The notes below the pieces were generated by a model. It ran no database searches. It saw only the letters and a list, made by a program, of their open reading frames with translations, and was not told the DNA's origin. From the IMG/VR virus record IMGVR_UViG_3300037067_007264, positions 32,001 through 96,000 of that record: DNA of 64,000 nucleotides, one strand, 5' to 3'. A program made the translations under genes and the position numbers. The DNA is from a virus. Taxonomy: Duplodnaviria; Caudoviricetes. Shown in pieces: positions 3 through 30,973 of this stretch (position 1 is its first letter; each line of letters starts with the position of its first letter).

Positions 3-863
3 TTCCTCCTCTTGAATAGATCGTACAGAACGATCGATCATGTCGAATCTTCGTTCCCTTATGTCACCTATGTTGATCTGGGGGCTACTCTGAAGTTCGA
101 ACGTTGGTACGTGAACTCGAGTTGCTTGAAGCCGTTCAACGGCACGTGGGTTGACGACTCCCATCCCAACCCTCTCGTGCACCGTGAACCCCATGGATAG
201 AGATCCCGGTGGATCCGCAGCGAGTACTGTCAGTTCAGTTCTTAATGGGAACTCTCCCATGAACTCTTGACTGAAAGCTCTATCTGCGTCCTCTGTGAAT
301 CTCCTCTGAGCCAGGGTGATCTCAGATCGATCACCCCCAATTGCAATATCAACCCCAGCTACAATTCCGATTGGAGGGGTCGAGAGTAAGGACAAATCCT
401 CACGGGTGATTAATCCAGTAGCTGGATCCACTCCGACAAGATCCCCAGGATGTAGTGGAACCCCACTATTGAACGAGGCCCCATCATCAAACGTTATCGC
501 GTCAACGGTGCGCCCCCGCAAACTATCTGGTCTCGAATGCCTGTCACCAAACCTAGGTTGATTATCCCTAACAACCTCGTACCTGCCACTCTCGTTTGGT
601 ACGAGATGAGATACCTGAAGTGGCATCCATACGTTAGCAGGTAATTGTAGAATACCCTTTCTCCTGATTAACTCTGCAACTGCTGGATTCTCAGGGCCAA
701 ACCCAAGGAAAGAGGCTGTGAGTATAGTTATTGGGTTATCCTGACTATCTGTAACCTCACAGTTTGTGAGCATAGGATCGTTTCGGATGAGTGCCCACTC
801 GGCGTATAGTTGGGTCCTATCGTTTGCAAGTAAGCTAGGGTACTCAATCCTCCACGTTGGCAT
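3..863 (-). CDS. Hypothetical protein with major-capsid-like segments (partial, runs off left edge)
   Basis: Translated by hand (absent from the ORF track): ATG at 863, MPTWRIEYPSLL..., open to the window edge. Contains GEFPLRTELTVLAADP...GFTVHERVGMGVVNPRAV and RVHVPTFELQSSPQINIGDIRERRFDMIDRS. GGTGTA motif 11 nt upstream. Confidence 0.75.
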   Translation of the reverse strand, partial: MPTWRIEYPSLLANDRTQLYAEWALIRNDPMLTNCEVTDSQDNPITILTASFLGFGPENPAVAELIRRKGILQLPANVWMPLQVSHLVPNESGRYEVVRDNQPRFGDRHSRPDSLRGRTVDAITFDDGASFNSGVPLHPGDLVGVDPATGLITREDLSLLSTPPIGIVAGVDIAIGGDRSEITLAQRRFTEDADRAFSQEFMGEFPLRTELTVLAADPPGSLSMGFTVHERVGMGVVNPRAVERLQATRVHVPTFELQSSPQINIGDIRERRFDMIDRSVRSIQEEE

Positions 864-874
864 GAACCACTTCT

Positions 875-886
875 TACACCGGTGTA
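875..886. promoter_or_regulatory. Palindromic double GGTGTA motif (TACACCGGTGTA) serving divergent genes
   Basis: Motif lies 11 nt from ATG 863(-) and 10 nt from ATG 897(+). Confidence 0.7.
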
Positions 887-896
887 GTGGTAACCC

Positions 897-1283
897 ATGC
901 CTCGGATTAAAGACCCCTGGAAAGCCCCAAAGGATGATAGTTGGATTGCAGTGGGAAGTAAGATAATCCCACTACCACCATCAAGGATTACCTCACTGTT
1001 CCCTGAAGGTCCTGATTGGGTGTGCAAGAACTTGCCTGAAAACCCCACACCTTATGATATGCCTGTGTTCATAATCACACGAATACAGACAGTAGCTAGT
1101 GGGAACAATTACATTCACTTTGAACGTGAAGGTAACTCTCGGATCACCATCACTCGTTGGGCAAAGGACATCTTAGATAAGTGGAGGCCAGCCCCAAAAC
1201 CACAAGTATTGCGTAGAAAGAAAGAGAAGATTGTTTCAGAGAGACCACCTCCGACGCGGTTTGAGCGGGAAGATGTAATCTAG
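897..1283 (+). CDS. Hypothetical protein, C-terminal tag PTRFEREDVI
   Basis: ORF, upstream GGTGTA, shared C-terminal motif. Confidence 0.85.
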   Translation: MPRIKDPWKAPKDDSWIAVGSKIIPLPPSRITSLFPEGPDWVCKNLPENPTPYDMPVFIITRIQTVASGNNYIHFEREGNSRITITRWAKDILDKWRPAPKPQVLRRKKEKIVSERPPPTRFEREDVI

Positions 1284-1642
1284 GATGCTAGTGATTGAGC
1301 TACTACAATGCAGCCTTCAACTTGATTTACAGAAGCTTGACAGTTTTCTAACCCGCCGATGAATCCAAAGAGGTTCAAGATCTCGGTGATAGCTGCAGGA
1401 TGAGGGAAGGATCCTTGAGTTGGGACTGACATAGAAATGTGTCGGTAAACTTCACTAGAGACAGGATCCTTCGTCAACGAGAAGACTATCCTGTAGTCCC
1501 CGAGTTGAAGAGTATGTTCTTTCGTATCTCCAGGAATCTTGGCAGCAGATCCTGGACGATAGAGGTTCTCGGGGCGTGATGCAAACTCTACTACTTTGGC
1601 AGCAGTACTCTTAGCGTAGTCATCAATGATCAGGATTCTCAT
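1280..1642 (-). CDS. Hypothetical protein
   Basis: 120-aa ORF; 4-nt convergent stop overlap; ATG abuts the upstream TAA. Confidence 0.75.
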   Translation of the reverse strand: MRILIIDDYAKSTAAKVVEFASRPENLYRPGSAAKIPGDTKEHTLQLGDYRIVFSLTKDPVSSEVYRHISMSVPTQGSFPHPAAITEILNLFGFIGGLENCQASVNQVEGCIVVAQSLAS

Positions 1643-1988
1643 TTAGATTACATCCTCGCGTAGGACACGGTGAAGTCTAGTCTCCTCCTCTGGGTGAAGG
1701 ATTACCCAAACATCTTCAACGAAAAATGTTCGACTTCCCCTTCTTAGACCGTAGGCTTAGCATGTCTTGGTTGACAACATCGGTGAATAACTTGACCCTA
1801 TGAAGGGTAACCAAGCTAGTTGAACACGGGTATCCGAGTATGTCCAGCAAGATTGCATAGTCTTCCTTGTGGATCCCAATTCCCGTAATGTCCTCTGGTT
1901 GGGTCTTCAGTATGGCCAAGATGACCTGCACTAGCCTCCTCCCTTTGCTAATGGTCGGCAAGTCGATAGGCGGAAGGTTAGTCATCAT
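1643..1988 (-). CDS. Hypothetical protein with +1 frameshift (programmed or indel) ending in tag ETRLHRVLREDVI
   Basis: The zero frame stops at TGA 1718-1716 after ATT TTT CGT. The +1 frame continues ...FVEDVWVILHPEEETRLHRVLREDVI to TAA 1645-1643, directly abutting the next ATG. Confidence 0.6.
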
Positions 1989-2733
1989 CCATCAGAATTC
2001 GTTCAAACCGGGTTCTTGGTTCCATTGGGATCTCAGAAGGTAGCCAATGTTTGCAAAAAGTCTCCGCGTCAAGTCTCCTGGGAGGTCCGTAATCTCTCCA
2101 GACCTGGTACTCTACCATAGCTGGATTGTAGGGAGTCCTCTCTATATTCCTTGGCTCGGTGGCCACAATGATTGCATAATCATTCCCGTTCTTTACCCAG
2201 GAACCAGTATCAACCCAATCTGGAGGGTTGAAGTCACTTACCGAGTCCTCATCATAGCTGGACAAGGCCCCCGCTGGCAGTTCGTCAACCATAAACACCC
2301 GTCGAGCCATTCCAGAGTAATCAAGACTTCTTCGGAGAGGGGCTAACATCGCCTGTGCAAGTGCCTGTCTTCCAGATGATGATTGGATGTACTCACTGAT
2401 GATGTTAGCCCTAACTTGAGGATCCATAGTAACCCCATTTGAATTAGGGGTTGATCCTAAGAGGTTATCCGAATGGAATGAGTATCTTCGATCAGTGGGT
2501 TGACCCCTCTGTATAGATTGCTGACGATTGTATAGCTCATGGAGGCTACCATCAAAGGTTGACTCCGCATCATCAACAAGCTGAACATCTAAGACGAAAG
2601 AACCATCATAGTAGTGTGTATAAGCTGTGAGCACGTTCCGGTCTTGGGCAAACCGGTGCCGATCAGCCCGAGCTTGAATCCGATGATCTAGTCCATCTCT
2701 ATACTGAAGACGCCAAAAGGCTCCGGCTGGCAT
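1978..2733 (-). CDS. Hypothetical protein with capsid-N-terminus-like segment and C-terminal tag TRFERILMDDD
   Basis: Segment IISEYIQSSSGRQALAQAMLAPLRRSLDYSGMARRVFMVDELPAGALSSYD; N-terminus resembles ORF 3..863. Confidence 0.8.
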   Translation of the reverse strand: MPAGAFWRLQYRDGLDHRIQARADRHRFAQDRNVLTAYTHYYDGSFVLDVQLVDDAESTFDGSLHELYNRQQSIQRGQPTDRRYSFHSDNLLGSTPNSNGVTMDPQVRANIISEYIQSSSGRQALAQAMLAPLRRSLDYSGMARRVFMVDELPAGALSSYDEDSVSDFNPPDWVDTGSWVKNGNDYAIIVATEPRNIERTPYNPAMVEYQVWRDYGPPRRLDAETFCKHWLPSEIPMEPRTRFERILMDDD

Positions 2734-2735
2734 TA

Positions 2736-3203
2736 CTACTGTCTCTTGAACCTAGGGTGGTACTCACCATCAGGCCAGAGTACTAACTCGGCCCACTCTC
2801 GTAGAGGACGAACAAAGGTTCCTTCAGTGCTCTCATACACCACAGCCTTCTCTTCTTTAGGGCCCTGTAGAAGAAGCGCTACTGAATATACAGTGTAGAG
2901 AGATCCCTTAAAGTGTTGGTAAGAGCCAGGAGAGGGTTTCCACCCTTCTTCAGCTTCCCCTCTCCAAATACATCGTAGTAGCTTTTCAGCCCTCTCTGTA
3001 TCCTCATCAGTAACTTGTATATGAGGTTCAACATCTGTGTAGAAGTTCAAAAACTTCGTTAGCAGAGGAGGATCAGAACCACATACCTGCTTGGCTCTCT
3101 TCTCAGCTTCAAGGATAGAAGACTCAGGGATCACTCCCGGTTGTTTACGAAGAGCGTAAGCAGCTAGTGTACGGTAAGGGTTGCTTATGCTAGGGGTAGC
3201 CAT
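2736..3203 (-). CDS. DUF1653-domain protein
   Basis: C-terminal GSYQHFKGSLYTV...VVYES...FVRP...PRF pattern typical of DUF1653. Confidence 0.75.
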   Translation of the reverse strand: MATPSISNPYRTLAAYALRKQPGVIPESSILEAEKRAKQVCGSDPPLLTKFLNFYTDVEPHIQVTDEDTERAEKLLRCIWRGEAEEGWKPSPGSYQHFKGSLYTVYSVALLLQGPKEEKAVVYESTEGTFVRPLREWAELVLWPDGEYHPRFKRQ

Positions 3204-3257
3204 TCCCCCCTAACTACACCGATGCCTACCCCTTATAGATTCGAGTGTGTAGTGCTT

Positions 3258-3361
3258 GTGCAGAGGGCTTTTCAGCCTTCTGCACCTAAATTAATTGACG
3301 GCCCTAGGAGACTCCCAACCCTTGAGGGGGGGCGGAGCTGGAAGTCCACTCTAGAACCGTC
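3258..3361 (-). ncRNA. Candidate structured RNA plus hairpin
   Basis: On the - strand GACGGUUCUAG pairs with CUAGGGCCGUC (3361-3297) using G-U pairs, followed by a second hairpin at 3285-3258; intergenic. Confidence 0.35.
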
Positions 3362-3427
3362 GAAGATTGAAAGATACCTCAAGAGTAGGCAGGAGTAAAC
3401 AACTTTCTACCCGGTGTATCAAAAAAG

Positions 3428-3943
3428 ATGGATTCAATACTGTTTTACTCCCCCAAGGAAACCCCATACGGGTGCTTCTCAAACTTTTCCAGGCATACTC
3501 TTGAGTTCGAGGATCGAACTTGGAGAACCTCTGAAGCTCCATTCCAAGCAATGAAGTTCTTTCCGCATAGAATGGACCTCGTTGATCAGATCCATAGGGC
3601 ACTAACCCCTACGGAAACAGCTATCATTGGTCGAGATCGGTCTAACCCACTGCGAGAAGATTGGGACAACCTACTTACAGAGGTACCCCTAGATGACAAT
3701 CTTGTGGACGATGGTCGTGGTCCCTCCAAGGTCCTTGAACGTGTCAAAGACTTGGTGATGTATCGCGTCGTGTTAGCCAAGTTTAGTCAAAATAAGGAGT
3801 GCCAAAGAATCCTTTTGAGCACTGGAGATCGCCCCATCATCGAGGATGCTATTCATGATCCTTACTGGGGTTGGGGTAGCTCTAAGACTGGAGTCAACCG
3901 ACTTGGAAAGATTCACATGGTTGTTCGTAGGGTTCTTAAATAA
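3428..3943 (+). CDS. NADAR family protein (YbiA-like)
   Basis: FSNF, W-x-TSE-x-x-FQAMKF, LREDW, KFSQN, LLSTGD, E-x4-D-x-YWG, G-x-N-x-LGK motifs. Confidence 0.92.
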   Translation: MDSILFYSPKETPYGCFSNFSRHTLEFEDRTWRTSEAPFQAMKFFPHRMDLVDQIHRALTPTETAIIGRDRSNPLREDWDNLLTEVPLDDNLVDDGRGPSKVLERVKDLVMYRVVLAKFSQNKECQRILLSTGDRPIIEDAIHDPYWGWGSSKTGVNRLGKIHMVVRRVLK

Positions 3944-4331
3944 CGTCAGGCCTTTCGAATCTGGTTGGGGCAGCTACCTCCACTAAGAACCCCTCTTGTT
4001 CAAAAGCCCACTTGAGCATGGTATAGGCTTCTTTGAGACCCGATCCCGTCATGGTCACTACTTGGGACCCGTTCTTGGCTCGAACCTCTTTCTGGGGTAC
4101 CAAGTAGACCTTGTTGACAAACCGCTTCCAACTTGTAGGAACTGGAACCTTGAACTCCCCAGTCGATTGTTCACCATATTCGGACGCAAATAAGAATAGA
4201 CAAGGGGCTGAATCACCCGTAATTATTATAGTTTCTCCAACGAGGTCCCTTCCAATTCGCACTAACTCCCCTTCGGCCAGACTCTTAGTCGGCTTTGGGC
4301 GATTCTGGGAATTGAAAAGAGGTGAAGCCAC
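3936..4331 (-). CDS. Hypothetical protein, C-terminal tag PTRFERPDVI
   Basis: ORF, upstream GGTGTA, shared motif. Confidence 0.85.
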   Translation of the reverse strand: MASPLFNSQNRPKPTKSLAEGELVRIGRDLVGETIIITGDSAPCLFLFASEYGEQSTGEFKVPVPTSWKRFVNKVYLVPQKEVRAKNGSQVVTMTGSGLKEAYTMLKWAFEQEGFLVEVAAPTRFERPDVI

Positions 4332-4476
4332 GAGCGGAGTCTACACCTTTTTGGCTCCATTGCAAAAACTTAGTGCAAACCGAGGACTTCTGGTGTAGTT
4401 CTCAACAAAACCTGGTCATAGCCAAACCAGATTTTGTGAGTGGTAGTTGAAGGTATAGAGTAATTTAGGAGGAACC

Positions 4477-4833
4477 ATGCCATTGAGTCGAGAAGCGCAA
4501 CAAGTTTCCAGTGATTTATCAGAAGCAGGCGAGGTATTTCGTGAGCGAAAGATCAGCGGTGCTCTTGACCCAGTTGCATTGACTATTGAAATAGCCAGAC
4601 TTATCGGGGAGGAGCGACGAGGGAGGGTGAGCACGACTGGATCAAGGACTCTCACTACGGGAACAGATCCAGTTTCTGTGGCTCGAACCCACCCGAGGGT
4701 TCCCTTTGCTCCAACCGCTGAACCCTTAGTTGAGACAGAACCAAAGCGGTCCCATAGGAAAAAGGAAGTCAAGGTTCCTGTAGCTCCAAGGTCAGAACCT
4801 AAGGCGAGGAAGAGACCCTCTCGTCGACGCTAA
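4477..4833 (+). CDS. Hypothetical protein with basic C-terminal tail
   Basis: Strong SD (AGGAGG) before ATG; hairpin after stop. Confidence 0.75.
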   Translation: MPLSREAQQVSSDLSEAGEVFRERKISGALDPVALTIEIARLIGEERRGRVSTTGSRTLTTGTDPVSVARTHPRVPFAPTAEPLVETEPKRSHRKKEVKVPVAPRSEPKARKRPSRRR

Positions 4834-4838
4834 GCTCT

Positions 4839-4878
4839 CAATTGGGTCAGGGGAAGTTGTGGTTCTCTGACCCAATTG
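4839..4878 (+). terminator. Putative intrinsic terminator hairpin
   Basis: caattgggtcagggga / ttctctgacccaattg stem followed by a T-rich tract. Confidence 0.55.
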
Positions 4879-4903
4879 TTCTTCTACTATAAGGGAACAG
4901 AAA

Positions 4904-5284
4904 GTGAGGATTCTTTTTCTAGATGATAATCCAGCTCGTCATAAGTTGATGGATAGAAGACATCCCTTAGACGAGATCCTACACGTTTATGACCTCGATG
5001 AATACAGAGAGGCTTTATCCAAGTATGATAGTTTTGACGTGATTAGCCTCGACTATGACCTGAACGACTTTACAGAGATCCATAATCATAGGAGTTATAT
5101 AGGTGATAGTGAAGGGAATGGGCGAGATGCTTGTGGTTACTTGATCAAGTTCCTCCACAAATCTCCAGAAGAGATTCTCATCCACTCATCCAATACAGAT
5201 GGATCTATTGAGATGATGCTATTTCTGTACAGTCGAGGGGTTGCAAGTAGGCGAGTTGTCTTCAATGATAACCCGGATCAGTAG
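4904..5284 (+). CDS. Cyclic-phosphate-processing receiver-like domain protein
   Basis: LFLDD...R, ISLDYDL, G-x-D, IHSSN-x-x-G signature. Confidence 0.75.
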   Translation: MRILFLDDNPARHKLMDRRHPLDEILHVYDLDEYREALSKYDSFDVISLDYDLNDFTEIHNHRSYIGDSEGNGRDACGYLIKFLHKSPEEILIHSSNTDGSIEMMLFLYSRGVASRRVVFNDNPDQ

Positions 5285-5517
5285 CTGTCTGACTTGAGTG
5301 GGGTCAAGCACTCACACTCTTTGCACAGGTAGTGACCATCTGATTCACAATTACCACTGGCGATACCATACTTGAAGTACTCACAGGGATTGAGGGTATC
5401 TCTGACACTTTGCTGTCCGACGATACACCCATCGTATAGAGGCAGGTAGACGGGTTTGGTTTGCTTCAAGTCATAGGGCATATGACTCTCGCTTAGGATT
5501 CTGTCGAACCGATTCAC
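5278..5517 (-). CDS. Small Cys-rich protein; N-terminal copy of the RFDRIL motif
   Basis: ORF starts (V/M)NRFDRILSE; C-x-S-D-G-H-x-x-C-x-x-C. Confidence 0.6.
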   Translation of the reverse strand: MNRFDRILSESHMPYDLKQTKPVYLPLYDGCIVGQQSVRDTLNPCEYFKYGIASGNCESDGHYLCKECECLTPLKSDSY

Positions 5518-5548
5518 CTAGATAGCATCCTCATATGGGGCCCTTTAA

Positions 5549-5839
5549 TTATTCTCGATTGTCATTACGCATCTCATCGATGCTGCAGACCCCATTCATC
5601 CACAAGACCCCTTGGATGAAGCATAGCCACCGTTCCGCCTTGCCATAGGTACCCTCACTCACTTGTTCTTCGATGATACTGCACATCCACAACACATGGG
5701 TGAGACTCACTATCCTGTTGTACTCTAGGCAATCCCTTTCGAGAGTGATCTTCATCTCTGTTGGGAACTTCGATGGGGTATACCCGACAAGAAGTTCCTT
5801 GTACCTCTGGCAAGCCGCTAAAATCTTTTCTGGAGTCAT
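5549..5839 (-). CDS. Hypothetical protein
   Basis: Start moved to MTPEK (GGTGTTA variant upstream); H-x-x-WMC and K-x-x-RWL-x-F-x-QG-x-LW pattern. Confidence 0.75.
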   Translation of the reverse strand: MTPEKILAACQRYKELLVGYTPSKFPTEMKITLERDCLEYNRIVSLTHVLWMCSIIEEQVSEGTYGKAERWLCFIQGVLWMNGVCSIDEMRNDNRE

Positions 5840-5858
5840 GATCAGGATAACACCGGAG

Positions 5859-7889
5859 TCACGAGACCAAGTCACCAAGCTCGTCGGAGAACTCCTCAAG
5901 GATGTCCACCACAGGATCCCCCTTCGACAGGGCTGGTGGGTGGGATGACAGGATACTTGTTGCTAGGTCATCTAACTCGGCATCATTCAAGTCCGAGGAA
6001 TTGGGTACTGGATCATCGCTCAAGTCGATGCTGTCAAAGTCAATCTCCTCGACCGGGTCCACCTTAGGGGGCTCACTCTTAGCCTGTTGTTTGGATTTCC
6101 TCTGTTGAACCTGCTCTTTGGTGATCCCAGGTGCTCCACCATGACCGTTTTCGCAGACGTCTCCGTGAATAGTCTTGAACTGAGGGTTCAGACAATCTTC
6201 ACAGAACAACCCGTTAAACTCGAGGGAGCGCTTTGAGTTGGTGAGCCTTTCAACGGAAGTTTTGGCTTCTTGGATGATCTCCAACAACAAGTCTCTGGTC
6301 TCTACTGGGTCATCAACTTCAGTGATGTCACTGACAAGAGACCGACTCAGAAGGAGTTGCCCTTTGATGTCCGTGGGTAAGCCAGGGACGTATGGGTTCT
6401 GATCTGCTGGGGCTAGAGGGGCAATGGCTCCAATGTCTTTGAGAAAGGTGTCTAAGCTCGAGTGGAGTCCCACTAGGTCTTCAGTGATAGTCTTATTGAG
6501 TGTAATGTCACCTAGGAGGGCTTCTATAGTAGCCCGAGCAATTGCTATGCGGTGTTCGTGAGACTTTTCTACTAGGAGGTCAATGGACCTTTCAAAAGCA
6601 ATCCTGAGGGAGTCCGCTAGTTTAGTCTTACCAGCTTCTGTCATCAGGTACCGGGCTATAATCTTGTCCTTAGCCTCCTTCATCTCTACAACATTGGAGA
6701 GTTCTGAATCTTTTGACGCCACAGGGATTTTGGAAAGATTCTCTTTCCACAGAGTTCTATTCTCTGGGCTGCTATCGATCTTAATCACATCGATTGGGAT
6801 CTCGGTGTGGAGGTCTATGATCCCAGTGGGCTTCGGAAGTGGAGGCGGATCCTGGGGTTCACTTCCGGACGGATCAGTGAGGTCTAGACCAGCGTCAAAA
6901 AGGTCCTGGGCTTCGTCCTGACCTTCGTAGGAGTCAGGGACTTCATCAACTGATGGTTCCGGTTCTGGTACAGGGGGTTCGACAGTAGTAGGTTGGGTGC
7001 TAACAACCTCAGGCACGTCAACAACCGGCTCTTCTACCTGAATTATTACATCCTCAAATGAAGGTTCCGGTTCGGGAGGTGTGGGTGGTTCGACGGGTGC
7101 TACCCTTTTGACCACGGTCAACTTAGGTGCTGGCTTTTCAGGTGCTGGTTTGGAGATGGCTTCCTGAAAGGTATCCGAGAACTTCTTGGGAGGAGGGTTC
7201 TCGAGATATCTAAGTACATCAGCTCGGACAGGATCACGTTGTTCTCGAGCGGCTTCCTCTTCGGCAAAGGTAATGGCTCTAGCAACAGTGGTAGCCGGAA
7301 TCTTGTTGTTGAATACCTTTATTCGGATCCCATCTGGGACGAGAGGGCTGTTCTTTACCATGACCAAGGCATCGGCAGTCTTGACTGTAATGCCTAACTG
7401 AGCAGCAACCTCTTTAGGACTCTCAATCTTGGGAGCATCTGCCTTTGGGCGTCCAGGTTTTCTCTTGAGTACAGACTCGTACTCACTTCTCCACAGGTCC
7501 CAGATGGCCGCTTTTCTTTCTGGCGTGAATTGTCGTCGATCCAAGTTTGACCTGATGAGATACAAGACTTCATCAGCTTCACTCTCGAAGTCTTCATGAA
7601 CTCTAACCGGAATCAGAGACTCTTTGATGAGTTCCCTAATATCCTTGAAGTTCTTAAACTTCTCGGCGAGGGTCCACAAGAACCCTGCATACCTTAAGTT
7701 GCCTGAGAGAATGGTTCCATCAGCCTTGATGATCAGTGGTTCTTGGATACCGTCTCTGGCAATGGATTCCCGAATTGCCAAAAAATTAGGATCGGCGGAT
7801 GGTTCAAGGAAGTACTTTAGGTTGAATGGGTGTGGGACTAAGTCCCCTACTTTTCTGAGTTCAATCTTATTCATGCTCACCAGTCCCAT
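5859..7889 (-). CDS. ParB/Srx N-terminal domain protein with long acidic/Pro-rich region and capsid-like helix
   Basis: L-x-PHP-x-N, ESI-x-x-DGI-x-EPL, ILSGNLR, SNL-x-RR, followed by an HTH-like segment (KEVAAQLGIT). Confidence 0.8.
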   Translation of the reverse strand: MGLVSMNKIELRKVGDLVPHPFNLKYFLEPSADPNFLAIRESIARDGIQEPLIIKADGTILSGNLRYAGFLWTLAEKFKNFKDIRELIKESLIPVRVHEDFESEADEVLYLIRSNLDRRQFTPERKAAIWDLWRSEYESVLKRKPGRPKADAPKIESPKEVAAQLGITVKTADALVMVKNSPLVPDGIRIKVFNNKIPATTVARAITFAEEEAAREQRDPVRADVLRYLENPPPKKFSDTFQEAISKPAPEKPAPKLTVVKRVAPVEPPTPPEPEPSFEDVIIQVEEPVVDVPEVVSTQPTTVEPPVPEPEPSVDEVPDSYEGQDEAQDLFDAGLDLTDPSGSEPQDPPPLPKPTGIIDLHTEIPIDVIKIDSSPENRTLWKENLSKIPVASKDSELSNVVEMKEAKDKIIARYLMTEAGKTKLADSLRIAFERSIDLLVEKSHEHRIAIARATIEALLGDITLNKTITEDLVGLHSSLDTFLKDIGAIAPLAPADQNPYVPGLPTDIKGQLLLSRSLVSDITEVDDPVETRDLLLEIIQEAKTSVERLTNSKRSLEFNGLFCEDCLNPQFKTIHGDVCENGHGGAPGITKEQVQQRKSKQQAKSEPPKVDPVEEIDFDSIDLSDDPVPNSSDLNDAELDDLATSILSSHPPALSKGDPVVDILEEFSDELGDLVS

Positions 7890-7934
7890 AATCTAGTTAC
7901 ACCACTATCCAAGTTGGTGTATAGTATCTGTGCA

Positions 7935-8240
7935 ATGAGTCACGTCTGGACATGGGTTCATGCCAACCCAGGATTTACTACCATCCTGCTACTCTCGGCT
8001 CTTATAGCTACATACATTTTGATATCCACTATCTCTAATCACATTCTTCTTGGGTGGAAAGCATTTTTCGCAAACTCTGCTCCACAAGAACCTGATGACG
8101 ATGATTCGGATGATGAGGGTTCTGATGACGAGAGGATACCTTCAGAGGAAACCCGTTCAGTTGACCTAGTTAGATCACCTCAATCTTCTACCGATACAGG
8201 CAAACACCCAACTCGGTTTGACAGGATCAATAACTCCTGA
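7935..8240 (+). CDS. Membrane protein, C-terminal tag PTRFDRINNS
   Basis: One hydrophobic helix, acidic linker, tag; GGTGTA upstream. Confidence 0.8.
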   Translation: MSHVWTWVHANPGFTTILLLSALIATYILISTISNHILLGWKAFFANSAPQEPDDDDSDDEGSDDERIPSEETRSVDLVRSPQSSTDTGKHPTRFDRINNS

Positions 8241-28422: not shown

Positions 28423-29070
28423 ATGCAAGACATTATTGAAGCCAGAAAGAGCCTCCGAGATCTGGTTGCCCCGTTCAAAAGAGTTCTACTAAGCTATCAG
28501 TTAGAGGAAAGGCTTGGTGTTGAAACTGGTACTCGCTTGGATGAGGATGCTTTTCAAGTATTTATTGAGATCACTATCTCACCAGCCAGTGATTACCCAT
28601 CTGTTGTGTTCAAGGAAGAACTTGCAACAGTTAGAGTACTTGCTCCAAGTAGAGTTGAGGCTATTGCAGAAGTCTACTCACAAGTTGAGAAGTTGTGCCC
28701 CAAGTGGCGTAGAGACTTGGAGATTGACCTAGCTTTCTCTAAGACTATTGGACAGCAAGTTCGAATTATCAGAGAGCTATTGGAGTATGTCATCAATCAA
28801 GATGATACTTGTAGAAAACTCGGTTTAGGCCTCGAAAGGGAGGAAGTGTTTCTTCAGCCTGGGGAGACCTTGGACGTTGTTGGCCATGAGCCCGGCAAGT
28901 TGATTGTTCAACAGGGAGAAAATCAATTCAATATCTACTACTGGAAGTTCACCAATTACGTTACTCAATATGATAAGTCCGGTGGCCCTGGTATAAGGAT
29001 TCCTACTCCCTACCTCGAGTTCACCAACGGCTATGTACCGTGGGTGCTCGGTGTAGATGAGTACTTATGA
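28423..29070 (+). CDS. Hypothetical protein
   Basis: 215-aa ORF. Confidence 0.8.
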   Translation: MQDIIEARKSLRDLVAPFKRVLLSYQLEERLGVETGTRLDEDAFQVFIEITISPASDYPSVVFKEELATVRVLAPSRVEAIAEVYSQVEKLCPKWRRDLEIDLAFSKTIGQQVRIIRELLEYVINQDDTCRKLGLGLEREEVFLQPGETLDVVGHEPGKLIVQQGENQFNIYYWKFTNYVTQYDKSGGPGIRIPTPYLEFTNGYVPWVLGVDEYL

Positions 29071-29282
29071 TAGAAGACTTCCAGCTTGAGGAGATCTGCA
29101 AATCAGTAGTCAACAACGAAGAGAACCACTTCGCAGTGTCCCTTCACAAAAGAGGGAAGACAGGGGTGCCCCGCCTTTTAATGCAGGTAATGCGTCAATT
29201 ACCGAAGAGTGAGATCAGCAATGATATGCTCATCAGGATTTACCAAACCTTGGTGAAGGTTATGGATAGCACTAGTAATTAG
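29067..29282 (+). CDS. Hypothetical protein
   Basis: ATGA-coupled ORF. Confidence 0.65.
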   Translation: MIEDFQLEEICKSVVNNEENHFAVSLHKRGKTGVPRLLMQVMRQLPKSEISNDMLIRIYQTLVKVMDSTSN

Positions 29283-29977
29283 TGAGCAGTCCCGATTCTA
29301 ATCTCCTCAGCTATTGCTATAGCAGCAGCTTTTGGATCTTGGGCATCTCGAATGGGTCGACCGATAACGATCAGCTTAGCCCCGTCAAGGACAGCTTGAG
29401 AGGGAGTCCCTACACGCTTTTGGTCACCTACTGAGGATCCTACTGGGCGAACTCCGGGAACTAAGTAGAAAGCTCCTGGCATCACCTGACTCAGAGACTT
29501 AACTTCATGAGGAGAGCAAACGAATCCTCGTATGCCACAATCGTATCCAAATGCACCGAGGCTTCCAACACGATTCAAGATGCTGTGACTTGGGTTGAAG
29601 TCCAACTCCTTGTAGTCCTCATCGGACATCGAAGTCAGGACCGTGACCATCAGGAGTGTGATCCCAAATGGTTCGGCTGCTTTTACAGCTTTCTCTAGAG
29701 AACCCCTTTGTTGTGCGTGGATCGTCATGAACTTGACACCCCGGTCACCACCAGTCTTGACCGCCCGTTCCACTGTTTCTGGGATGTCGTGGAGCTTGAG
29801 ATCGAGAATGATGGGGTTGGTTGTCAACTCCATGAATGTTCGTCCTGTCTTTATGAAAAGTTCGAGTCCGACTTTGAAGGCACCCACATAGGGCTCGAGG
29901 GTTGTAATCAACCTCTCCGCTGTGTTGGCATCCGGGACATCTAGGGCGAAGGCAATGTATCCGTAGGGTTGAGTCAT
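29279..29977 (-). CDS. pyrF: Orotidine-5'-phosphate decarboxylase
   Basis: ALD, KVGLELF, ILDLKLHDIPETV, VTVLTS, VCS, VPGVRP, DQKR, VIGRPI. Confidence 0.97.
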   Translation of the reverse strand: MTQPYGYIAFALDVPDANTAERLITTLEPYVGAFKVGLELFIKTGRTFMELTTNPIILDLKLHDIPETVERAVKTGGDRGVKFMTIHAQQRGSLEKAVKAAEPFGITLLMVTVLTSMSDEDYKELDFNPSHSILNRVGSLGAFGYDCGIRGFVCSPHEVKSLSQVMPGAFYLVPGVRPVGSSVGDQKRVGTPSQAVLDGAKLIVIGRPIRDAQDPKAAAIAIAEEIRIGTAH

Positions 29978-30017
29978 GAAGATAGCCTTTACAACAAGTC
30001 TAGTGTAAAAGCAATAG

Positions 30018-30596
30018 TCACGCTGCTTTGACCTCAGGTGGGCGTCGATATTGACGGTTACTGTACTCGTCAGCCTGTCCCTTCTTGTATGGAATGTGAA
30101 ATGCTTTCACAAGCATCTTGAACAAATCCTCCGCACCAAAGGCACAGAATGAAGGGCTTAAACACAGACCTATTCCGACACAGTCTCGAAGGTAAAGACT
30201 GAGATCTACCTCTTGAGGCTCGAAGACAGTATTGGTAGTTAGCCAATCGGAACCTGAGTTCCAGAACTTCTGCCCGTGATTACAGCTCCCGTGGGAGACT
30301 CCTTTTTGGTTTCTGATCCAAAGGTACTTCCCTCGAGTTCGCCACTTCACGTAAGAGACCCAGGTCCCACACTCAAAGATGTTGATATCCGTATCGGTCA
30401 GATCTGAATGCTCATCAACGTTTACGAGAAGATTGGCCCCAGACTTGTTGATACTGGGGAGTAGCTGCTGGTGATTCATCACAGCTCGAATTGGTATGTC
30501 CCCACGTCGAAGGAGAAGTTTGGACAATGTCTTCTCAGCTGCGTCCAAGTCATTCCAGAAATCTATGTCAATTGAGAGATAGGTTTTTAGGGTCAT
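30018..30596 (-). CDS. Putative arginase/deacetylase-fold (UPF0489-like) protein
   Basis: LSIDIDFW, HQ, N-x-D-x-H-x-D, G-x-W, C-x-SP. Confidence 0.6.
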   Translation of the reverse strand: MTLKTYLSIDIDFWNDLDAAEKTLSKLLLRRGDIPIRAVMNHQQLLPSINKSGANLLVNVDEHSDLTDTDINIFECGTWVSYVKWRTRGKYLWIRNQKGVSHGSCNHGQKFWNSGSDWLTTNTVFEPQEVDLSLYLRDCVGIGLCLSPSFCAFGAEDLFKMLVKAFHIPYKKGQADEYSNRQYRRPPEVKAA

Positions 30597-30973
30597 TGGG
30601 TGGAGTGGTTACGCAAGGTTGGTGGAGTACTATCGGAAACTCTGACAGGTGGGCCTATTGGTGTTGAGGGTTCTTCAAATATCTCGTGAGGGTCAGAATG
30701 GTGGATAACCTCTGGTCGATCAAAGTCTGGTGCTGTCCCATCAAGAGCCTCGTTTGCAGCCGCTAATGATAGCTCAGGACGGGTTGACCCTAGCATATCC
30801 ACGAAGAAACTTGCCAGGTCGAATGAGTCATACCCCTGAATTAGGACTTCACCCCCGATGTCGGTCCAATGTACTACTTTTTCGCTGTCCACGGAGAAGG
30901 TCTCATTTTGAACAGTGAGTCCCCTCATGATAGCTCGGATTACTACTAAGACGGCTTCCGATTTGTAGGCCAC
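30593..30973 (-). CDS. Hypothetical protein
   Basis: Coupled ORF. Confidence 0.7.
   Translation of the reverse strand: MAYKSEAVLVVIRAIMRGLTVQNETFSVDSEKVVHWTDIGGEVLIQGYDSFDLASFFVDMLGSTRPELSLAAANEALDGTAPDFDRPEVIHHSDPHEIFEEPSTPIGPPVRVSDSTPPTLRNHSTQ

Follow-up and report, generated by a model that had tools for sequence, protein, structure and literature searches.

Modules derived from a phage-G-type major capsid protein within conserved genes of a huge phage

A 64,000-nucleotide stretch of viral DNA, hereafter the window, encodes proteins that carry pieces of a major capsid protein (MCP). The window comprises bases 32001-96000 of the 145,487-bp IMG/VR virus contig IMGVR_UViG_3300037067_007264. 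The pieces in two of its open reading frames (ORFs), here termed ORF A and ORF B, are modules of genes under selection and derive from an HK97-fold MCP of the phage G type. Similar stretches occur in a ParB-like protein (ORF C) and in a protein encoded just before the window (protein E). Coordinates preceded by an L number are working labels for contig pieces, L001 being a region of the source contig, and G001 denotes a complete relative of 512,571 bp with terminal repeats.

Capsid-protein modules in ORFs A and B

The 145-kb contig is 28% complete according to CheckV, and the source phage genome is about 500 kb. Searches of the contig with PHROG 2522 ('major head protein') gave three partial matches only and no full-length MCP, because the MCP gene of the clade lies in a part of the genome that the contig does not include. 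The genuine gene was located in G001, which encodes orthologs of ORF A (78% identity), ORF B (76%) and ORF C (68%). It specifies 289 residues (L012:1480-2349:-, at 403.6-404.4 kb), is the sole full-length match to PHROG 2522 in that genome and matches the phage G gp27 capsid structure (PDB 6wkk) with an E value of 5.8e-62. By sequence comparison, the clade MCP is an HK97-fold protein of the phage G gp27 type. The G001 protein shares 75-84% identity with the MCPs of two other huge-phage records, 48% with that of Tunturiibacter phage Tunturi_5 and 38.5% with that of phage G. Its relatives occur on more than 590 viral contigs; the best 80 are more than 90% identical, with lengths of 300-530 kb common among them. 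The B and A orthologs of G001 lie at 221-224 kb, about 180 kb away from the head module.

The features of ORFs A and B in the window are:

3..863, minus strand: ORF A, residues 1-287 of 341
639..863, minus strand: ORF A N-terminal domain (residues 1-75), beta-alpha-beta-beta-alpha, ferredoxin-like arrangement; AlphaFold predicted local distance difference test (pLDDT) 70-87
120..272, minus strand: ORF A first piece (residues 198-248), homologous to MCP 238-288, the C-terminal P-domain strands
3..119, minus strand: ORF A second piece (residues 249-287 in the window), homologous to MCP 82-140 and running to about residue 300 outside the window
1978..2733, minus strand: ORF B, 251 residues, C-terminal end ..PRTRFERILMDDD
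2509..2733, minus strand: ORF B N-terminal domain (residues 1-75), with the same topology as that of ORF A as predicted by AlphaFold
2245..2424, minus strand: ORF B MCP-like piece (residues 104-163), homologous to MCP 2-61, with the helices of the N-arm and the first strand of the P-domain
2023..2226, minus strand: ORF B small beta-rich domain (residues 170-237), Tudor/DUF1653-like by fold only; AlphaFold pLDDT 62-83
1981..2019, minus strand: ORF B C-terminal tag P-R-T-R-F-E-R-I-L-M-D-D-D, selected at the protein level (synonymous codon variation)

The piece in ORF B gave the strongest alignment. PHROG 2522 matches ORF B with an E value of 6.8e-8, and the G001 MCP aligns with it over MCP 5-63 (47% identity, per-genome E 1.2e-13). 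Profile-profile comparison equates B 103-163 with MCP 2-61 (E 5.9e-24) at top column confidence. The B family has 10 members, down to 49% identity and, as for the A family, on contigs of up to 512 kb, and several of its residues are invariant jointly with the MCPs; a region-limited word search with the ORF B piece returned the B family only and nothing further.

The full ORF A gene (L001:9838-10863:-) encodes 341 residues with a ..RRTRFERI.. tail and runs 162 nt past the window start. PHROG 2522 matches it with an E value of 5.9e-9, and hhalign profile-profile comparison with the MCP gives 2.7e-15. Two parts of the G001 MCP align with it, MCP 238-289 (54% identity, E 1.7e-12) and MCP 84-139 (44%, E 2.4e-7). 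The profiles pair A 198-249 with MCP 238-288 and A 246-300 with MCP 82-140, with high column confidence for both, and place A 145-197 on MCP 198-237 with moderate column confidence; the first piece may thus extend upstream to residue 145. The second piece is the E-loop return strand and spine helix of the MCP. The order of the pieces is permuted, with the C-terminal piece coming first and the middle piece directly abutting it, as a reading of the DNA letters without database searches (the original prediction) had proposed. The pieces have one R-V in common, which matches the last MCP residues and also MCP 85-86. The junction of two tandem MCP copies would leave such a trace, and an origin at a junction of this kind best explains the order. 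The A family comprises 15 members, down to 35% identity, on contigs of up to 512 kb; some members are without the second piece, while others have an insertion between the pieces.

These alignments with a genuine relative MCP and with PHROG 2522 bear out the earlier proposal that segments of the three proteins, all present where they had been quoted, resemble the N-terminal, C-terminal and middle parts of an HK97-fold MCP from a group of large environmental phages. The term 'epitopes' that had been applied to them does not fit: the segments are larger and more organised, being modules at the level of domains, one with the N-arm and the first strand of the P-domain, the other with P-domain strands and the spine helix. 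Neither ORF A nor ORF B covers the MCP colinearly over its full length, and the first half of the MCP A-domain is absent from both.

Outside the pieces, residues 1-75 are the most conserved part of the A family, and a fold search with this domain gave a best Z score of 7.1, reflecting a common arrangement only. A W-R-x-x-Y module had been thought to be shared by the N-termini of ORFs A and B. Neither BLAST nor hhalign found significant sequence likeness between these domains, but the predicted topology at residues 1-75 is the same, and the two AlphaFold models match some of the same ferredoxin-like PDB chains. The C-terminal domain of ORF B matches PDB chain 3be3_B (Z 6.6, root-mean-square deviation 2.7, 64 aligned residues); a comparison with the neighbouring DUF1653 protein showed no sequence likeness. 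With Z 5-6, the C-terminal domains of CarD and UvrD also resemble it, and all these scores are of the size that common arrangements give. In the AlphaFold monomer models the MCP-like parts are left unfolded in both ORF A (pLDDT 43, with a long helix predicted at 266-297) and ORF B (pLDDT 56). A complex model of A 190-341 with B 100-251, run without controls and with a cut that excludes the possibly MCP-like A 145-189, scored 0.17 against a mark of 0.32 and counts neither for nor against an interaction.

Could the pieces be what is left of a duplicated MCP gene in decay, covered by ORFs that arose by chance? Their fragmentary coverage and rearranged order would be in keeping with such debris. 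However, full-length orthologs are conserved down to 35-50% identity, and the ratio of non-synonymous to synonymous substitution rates (dN/dS) is 0.04-0.24 in every segment: 0.09-0.22 in MCP-like segments (0.22 for the ORF B piece), 0.04-0.24 in the others and 0.08-0.24 for ORF A. No frame breaks were found in the MCP-piece ORFs. These selection and conservation data refute the debris reading, to which we attach next to no weight.

A recent duplication of the resident MCP was likewise ruled out, since the identity of the pieces to clade MCPs is 44-57% throughout, against 76-99% among those MCPs. Because the pieces in A, B, E and a protein designated D are only 41-58% identical to clade MCPs, they are old paralogs and not recent copies. 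The C-terminal piece of ORF A and the A-domain piece are nearer to this clade's MCP than to the phage G MCP.

The permuted module is not confined to this phage. A HMMER search that queried 1.84 billion representative proteins with residues 195-300 of ORF A returned 222 clusters at E ≤0.001. Among the best 149, which were examined, 48 are full MCPs, 26 have the order C-terminal piece then middle piece, and 75 hold single pieces, in some cases only because a contig end truncates an MCP gene. P0068, the most complete of the permuted relatives, has MCP 125-284 followed by MCP 84-115; its ESM Atlas model (pLDDT 0.32) is unusable. In P0124, MCP 222-279 is joined directly to MCP 8-57, an arrangement that reads as the signature of a tandem duplication. 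B-type and A-type pieces are fused in one chain in P0124, P0156, P0055, which ends in a TRFERIL tail like the tag of the source contig, and P0073, a complete gene in a 43.7-kb contig. Since these fusion proteins unite the two types, A and B probably act together, supplying the N-arm and nearly the whole P-domain with little of the A-domain. The gene order B-A-E is kept on three other contigs (L005, L006, L007).

Grafted cassettes, varying repertoires and a terminal tag

Two further carriers hold MCP-like stretches that are present in some orthologs and absent from others:

5859..7889, minus strand: ORF C, 676 residues, putative ParB-like N-terminal domain, without the terminal tag described below
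6597..6692, minus strand: ORF C cassette (residues 400-431), 32 residues, holding an MCP N-arm-like helix (MCP 4-30)
L001:7705-8856:- (contig 29705-30856), minus strand: protein E, 383 residues, ..SRFERDIGI tail, 1.1 kb before the window start

Residues 7-172 of ORF C match PHROG 4715 (E 1.4e-8) and PHROG 620 (E 8.1e-5) and no Pfam family at E 0.1. The claim that this ParB-like protein carries a helix like that of ORF B holds, on a weaker match than those of ORFs A and B. The helix (residues 405-432) is the best match of the N-arm profile outside ORF B among all six-frame ORFs of the 145-kb contig, but its E value is weaker, at 0.004 (the next match has 0.39). The 32-residue cassette is also present in L097, where it is more MCP-like, and is exactly absent from the well-aligned G001 ortholog (L098). 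In protein E, a stretch resembling MCP 224-254 (53% identity, E 0.003-0.006) lies within a 92-residue cassette that is found in three genomes and cleanly absent from the G001 ortholog. The capsid-like stretches of ORF C and protein E, present or absent among orthologs, are thus in-frame grafted cassettes, and the word 'grafted' in the original prediction was apt.

The set of pieces differs from genome to genome. At least eight G001 proteins carry MCP pieces, jointly covering every MCP region: the N-arm twice, the E-loop region three times, the A-domain three times and the C-terminal strands once. One to four pieces each, in differing sets, were found in another five complete genomes, the MCPs of which are 93-99% identical to the G001 protein. 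In all, six complete relatives with 93-100% identical MCPs have each their own set. Pieces were confirmed in a 407,078-bp genome. The idea that a single MCP gene was split into three complementary genes (A, B and an A-domain protein) was rejected as the whole story, as the G001 pieces overlap and other genomes hold other subsets. In the cultured phage Tunturi_5 (accession PP885688.1; host Tunturiibacter psychrotolerans X4BP1), the 97-residue protein gp172 is 79% identical over 29 residues to the E-loop strand and helix start of the phage's own MCP, and this piece is an independent, younger capture. Besides the near-copy of the MCP part at its end, gp172 (L106:931-1224:-) has a twin-arginine-like start, T-R-R-Q-F-F-R, and a hydrophobic stretch; it would be strange for a capsid piece to be exported or anchored in a membrane.

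It is improbable that the pieces are weapons against rivals, acting as poison subunits that spoil the head assembly of co-infecting huge phages. The clade MCP is so widely shared, with relatives on more than 590 viral contigs and the best 80 more than 90% identical, that one inhibitor could hit many rivals, and the capsid-redirecting proteins encoded by satellites provide a precedent. The resident MCP is, however, 93-99% identical to those of its relatives, and a dominant-negative action is disfavoured because, without strict timing, poison subunits would also spoil the heads of the phage that makes them.

Most piece proteins share a C-terminal peptide with many other proteins of the same genome. 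On the 145-kb contig 33 ORFs end in P-T-R-F-E/D-R followed by 4-25 residues, with 38 copies of the motif in all. Examples in the window, each with a PTRFER-type end, are:

897-1283, plus strand: tag-bearing ORF
3936-4331, minus strand: tag-bearing ORF
7914-8240, plus strand: tag-bearing ORF

Two subtypes were distinguished, ending in ..R-[EDN]-x-V-[IL]-stop and in ..R-I-L-x-x-D-D. The codons for Arg, Thr, Phe and Glu vary freely, which shows that the peptide itself is under selection; a DNA-level regulatory motif was ruled out as its cause, as both arginines use all six Arg codons. Many unrelated proteins thus carry one short terminal peptide on which selection acts at the protein level. In G001 it occurs on 53 of 727 ORFs (~7%), all but one of them within 0-300 kb, away from the head genes. 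It is enriched among piece proteins, both in G001 (4/8 versus 53/727, P 0.0014) and on the 145-kb contig (3/4 versus 34/260, P 0.0075). Permuted proteins of other lineages carry other aromatic-acidic tails (R-T-x-W-E-R-L-L, G-Y-F-E-E, S-R-W-E-E-I), and the design of piece plus tag therefore outlives any single tag.

Domain copies of other origin were also seen in G001. A PTRFER-tagged 219-residue protein (L122:3766-4425:-) carries residues 50-127 of a UvsX-like recombinase (L129:18581-19816:-), and an untagged 175-residue protein (L119:1246-1773:-) corresponds to the N-terminal 150 residues of a DnaB-like helicase.

The pieces might have no link to the capsid at all, being MCP helices and strands captured by recombination and exapted as linkers or oligomerisation modules. 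Their age and divergence agree with this, as do their setting between unrelated ferredoxin-like, Tudor-like and ParB-like domains, their dispensability in some orthologs and the existence of other stand-alone domain copies, such as the DnaB N-terminal domain, in large phage genomes. Against exaptation of this kind, it is the MCP in particular that has been captured repeatedly, across several lineages and together with different types of tag, MCP-invariant residues are retained and the association with the tag is significant. We regard it as rather unlikely.

Capsid mimicry and capsid docking

We tentatively favour an explanation in which the piece proteins mimic the capsid without assembling and compete for a partner that binds it, probably capsid sensors of the host. 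ORFs A and B would form a split, A-domain-poor 'mini-MCP' unable to build a shell. Such a mini-MCP would display the surface of unassembled MCP and compete for a partner that normally binds MCP. The likeliest partner would be a host capsid-sensing defence protein, with the pieces acting as decoys or blockers. A decoy strategy would be favoured because the very constrained MCP cannot easily escape sensors through mutation. More tentative still is the wider proposal of a fast-turning, tag-addressed set of non-assembling capsid-domain mimics, the A+B mini-MCP among them, that would serve as a self-mimicry counter-defence, with the tag delivering or timing the effectors via one reader.

The premise of host recognition has precedents. 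The Gol peptide of T4 gp23, together with Lit and EF-Tu, is a case of a short MCP peptide recognised by a host defence. Bacterial immunity that senses capsids is established: CapRel SJ46 senses the MCP (PMC9712102), and STAND receptors sense core phage proteins (PMC13581612).

Several points weigh against mimicry. The two main objections are that a decoy would be expected to stay near the MCP, yet the pieces are 44-57% identical to it without sign of gene conversion, and that a copied trigger might activate a sensor instead of blocking it. In addition, the MCP-like parts of A and B are not confidently folded in the monomer models, and the loss of one piece in some A-family members makes the module non-essential to the family. 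Finally, no piece was detectable in the 485-kb record LR745208.1, whose MCP is 84% identical, or in phage G.

A possible but less favoured explanation is docking on the capsid or scaffold. Here the pieces would imitate subunit-linking or scaffold-binding elements, so that their carriers, including the ParB-like one, are recruited to procapsids or act as assembly helpers or caps. In HK97-type shells these parts are generally known to make inter-subunit and scaffold contacts. The pieces keep the most conserved MCP residues and are under purifying selection, they are unfolded in monomer models as expected of elements that require a partner, and the fusions point to a single P-domain completed jointly by the A and B pieces. 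On the other hand, the genes are about 180 kb from the head module, and the repertoire varies beside MCPs that are 93-99% identical, with no piece detected in LR745208.1 or phage G. Three separate A-domain pieces and the UvsX piece have no obvious docking role, and a tag on ~7% of all proteins would make for a large number of packaged cargo proteins.

The evidence, which is indirect, leans towards mimicry or a decoy function over a fixed structural role. The distance from the head genes, the tag, the turnover beside a near-invariant MCP, the repeated independent origin and the UvsX piece fit arms-race accessory genes better than fixed parts of the shell. The UvsX piece on a tagged protein counts for mimicry, as docking on the capsid would not explain it.

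Neighbouring genes and comparison with known systems

Genes for three proteins with recognisable domains are interleaved with ORF B and ORF C, and a fourth adjoins protein E:

2736-3203, minus strand: DUF1653 protein (E 2e-10)
3428-3943, plus strand: NADAR domain protein (E 1.4e-28)
4904-5284, plus strand: cREC_REC receiver-type domain protein (E 6.8e-11)
L001:6442-7662:- (contig 28442-29662), minus strand: classic AAA ATPase, PF00004 (E 1.3e-12), with a long poly-Asp/Glu tail

NADAR and cRec have been discussed as counter-defence parts of jumbo phages in NAD/ADP-ribose conflict systems (PMC7824862), and their presence beside the piece genes counts in favour of mimicry. As a guess only, tagged proteins could be read or unfolded by the AAA ATPase near protein E.

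Around the genuine MCP gene of G001, a 210-residue ORF (L012:2381-3013:-) and a Gln-rich 218-residue ORF (L012:3140-3796:-) lie upstream and are, from their position, candidate decoration and scaffold genes. In two relatives, LAGLIDADG-like motifs were seen by eye in the ORF directly after the MCP gene (L012:426-1394:-, L009:10784-12685:+), which may encode a homing endonuclease next to this very conserved gene.

A search of the literature on capsid decoys and fragments in jumbo phages, the tag, permuted HK97 proteins and Tunturi_5 found no description of the piece proteins, and no phage-encoded capsid decoy is described in the literature searched. If the piece proteins are mimics, they would represent a counter-defence principle new for phages, the copying of domains of their own most conserved protein, and would suggest that the hosts of this very widespread clade of huge phages possess capsid-sensing immunity. 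If they instead dock on shell or scaffold, they would reveal a new route by which very large heads are loaded with cargo. On both readings, the permuted P-domain module and the rearranged fusions amount to an experiment by nature in which the HK97 fold has been cut and rejoined, and gp172 of the cultured phage Tunturi_5 offers a route to experiments.

Among known systems, capsid-triggered immunity (CapRel SJ46, STAND receptors, Gol with Lit and EF-Tu), in which hosts recognise the MCP, is the premise of the decoy reading. Imitation of capsid or scaffold parts is familiar from satellites: CpmB of Staphylococcus aureus pathogenicity islands (SaPI) and the MCP homolog Ccm of phage-inducible chromosomal islands (PICI) imitate such parts and interfere with head assembly. 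There a satellite acts on its helper phage, whereas in the present case the pieces come from the phage's own genome and its MCP would be a target. Short terminal tags common to unrelated proteins likewise occur as the cargo-loading peptides of encapsulins and the capsid targeting sequence of T4, where the HK97-fold shell or its core recognises them. In sequence the PTRFER tag resembles neither, and the tagged genes are not beside the shell gene.

The closest relatives of the pieces themselves are the phage G gp27 MCP (PDB 6wkk, PHROG 2522) and the clade MCP; defined parts of this protein have homologues in A, B, C and E. In contrast to gp27, each carrier holds 10-35% of an MCP, set among unrelated domains, far from head genes and mostly tagged, and in ORF A the order of the pieces is permuted. 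Reordered elements of the HK97 (Johnson) fold also occur in nature in the MCP of Bordetella phage BPP-1, which is non-circularly permuted (PMC3863775). The BPP-1 protein is complete and shell-forming, whereas ORF A is a partial, accessory derivative that places the E-loop strand and spine helix after the C-terminal strands.

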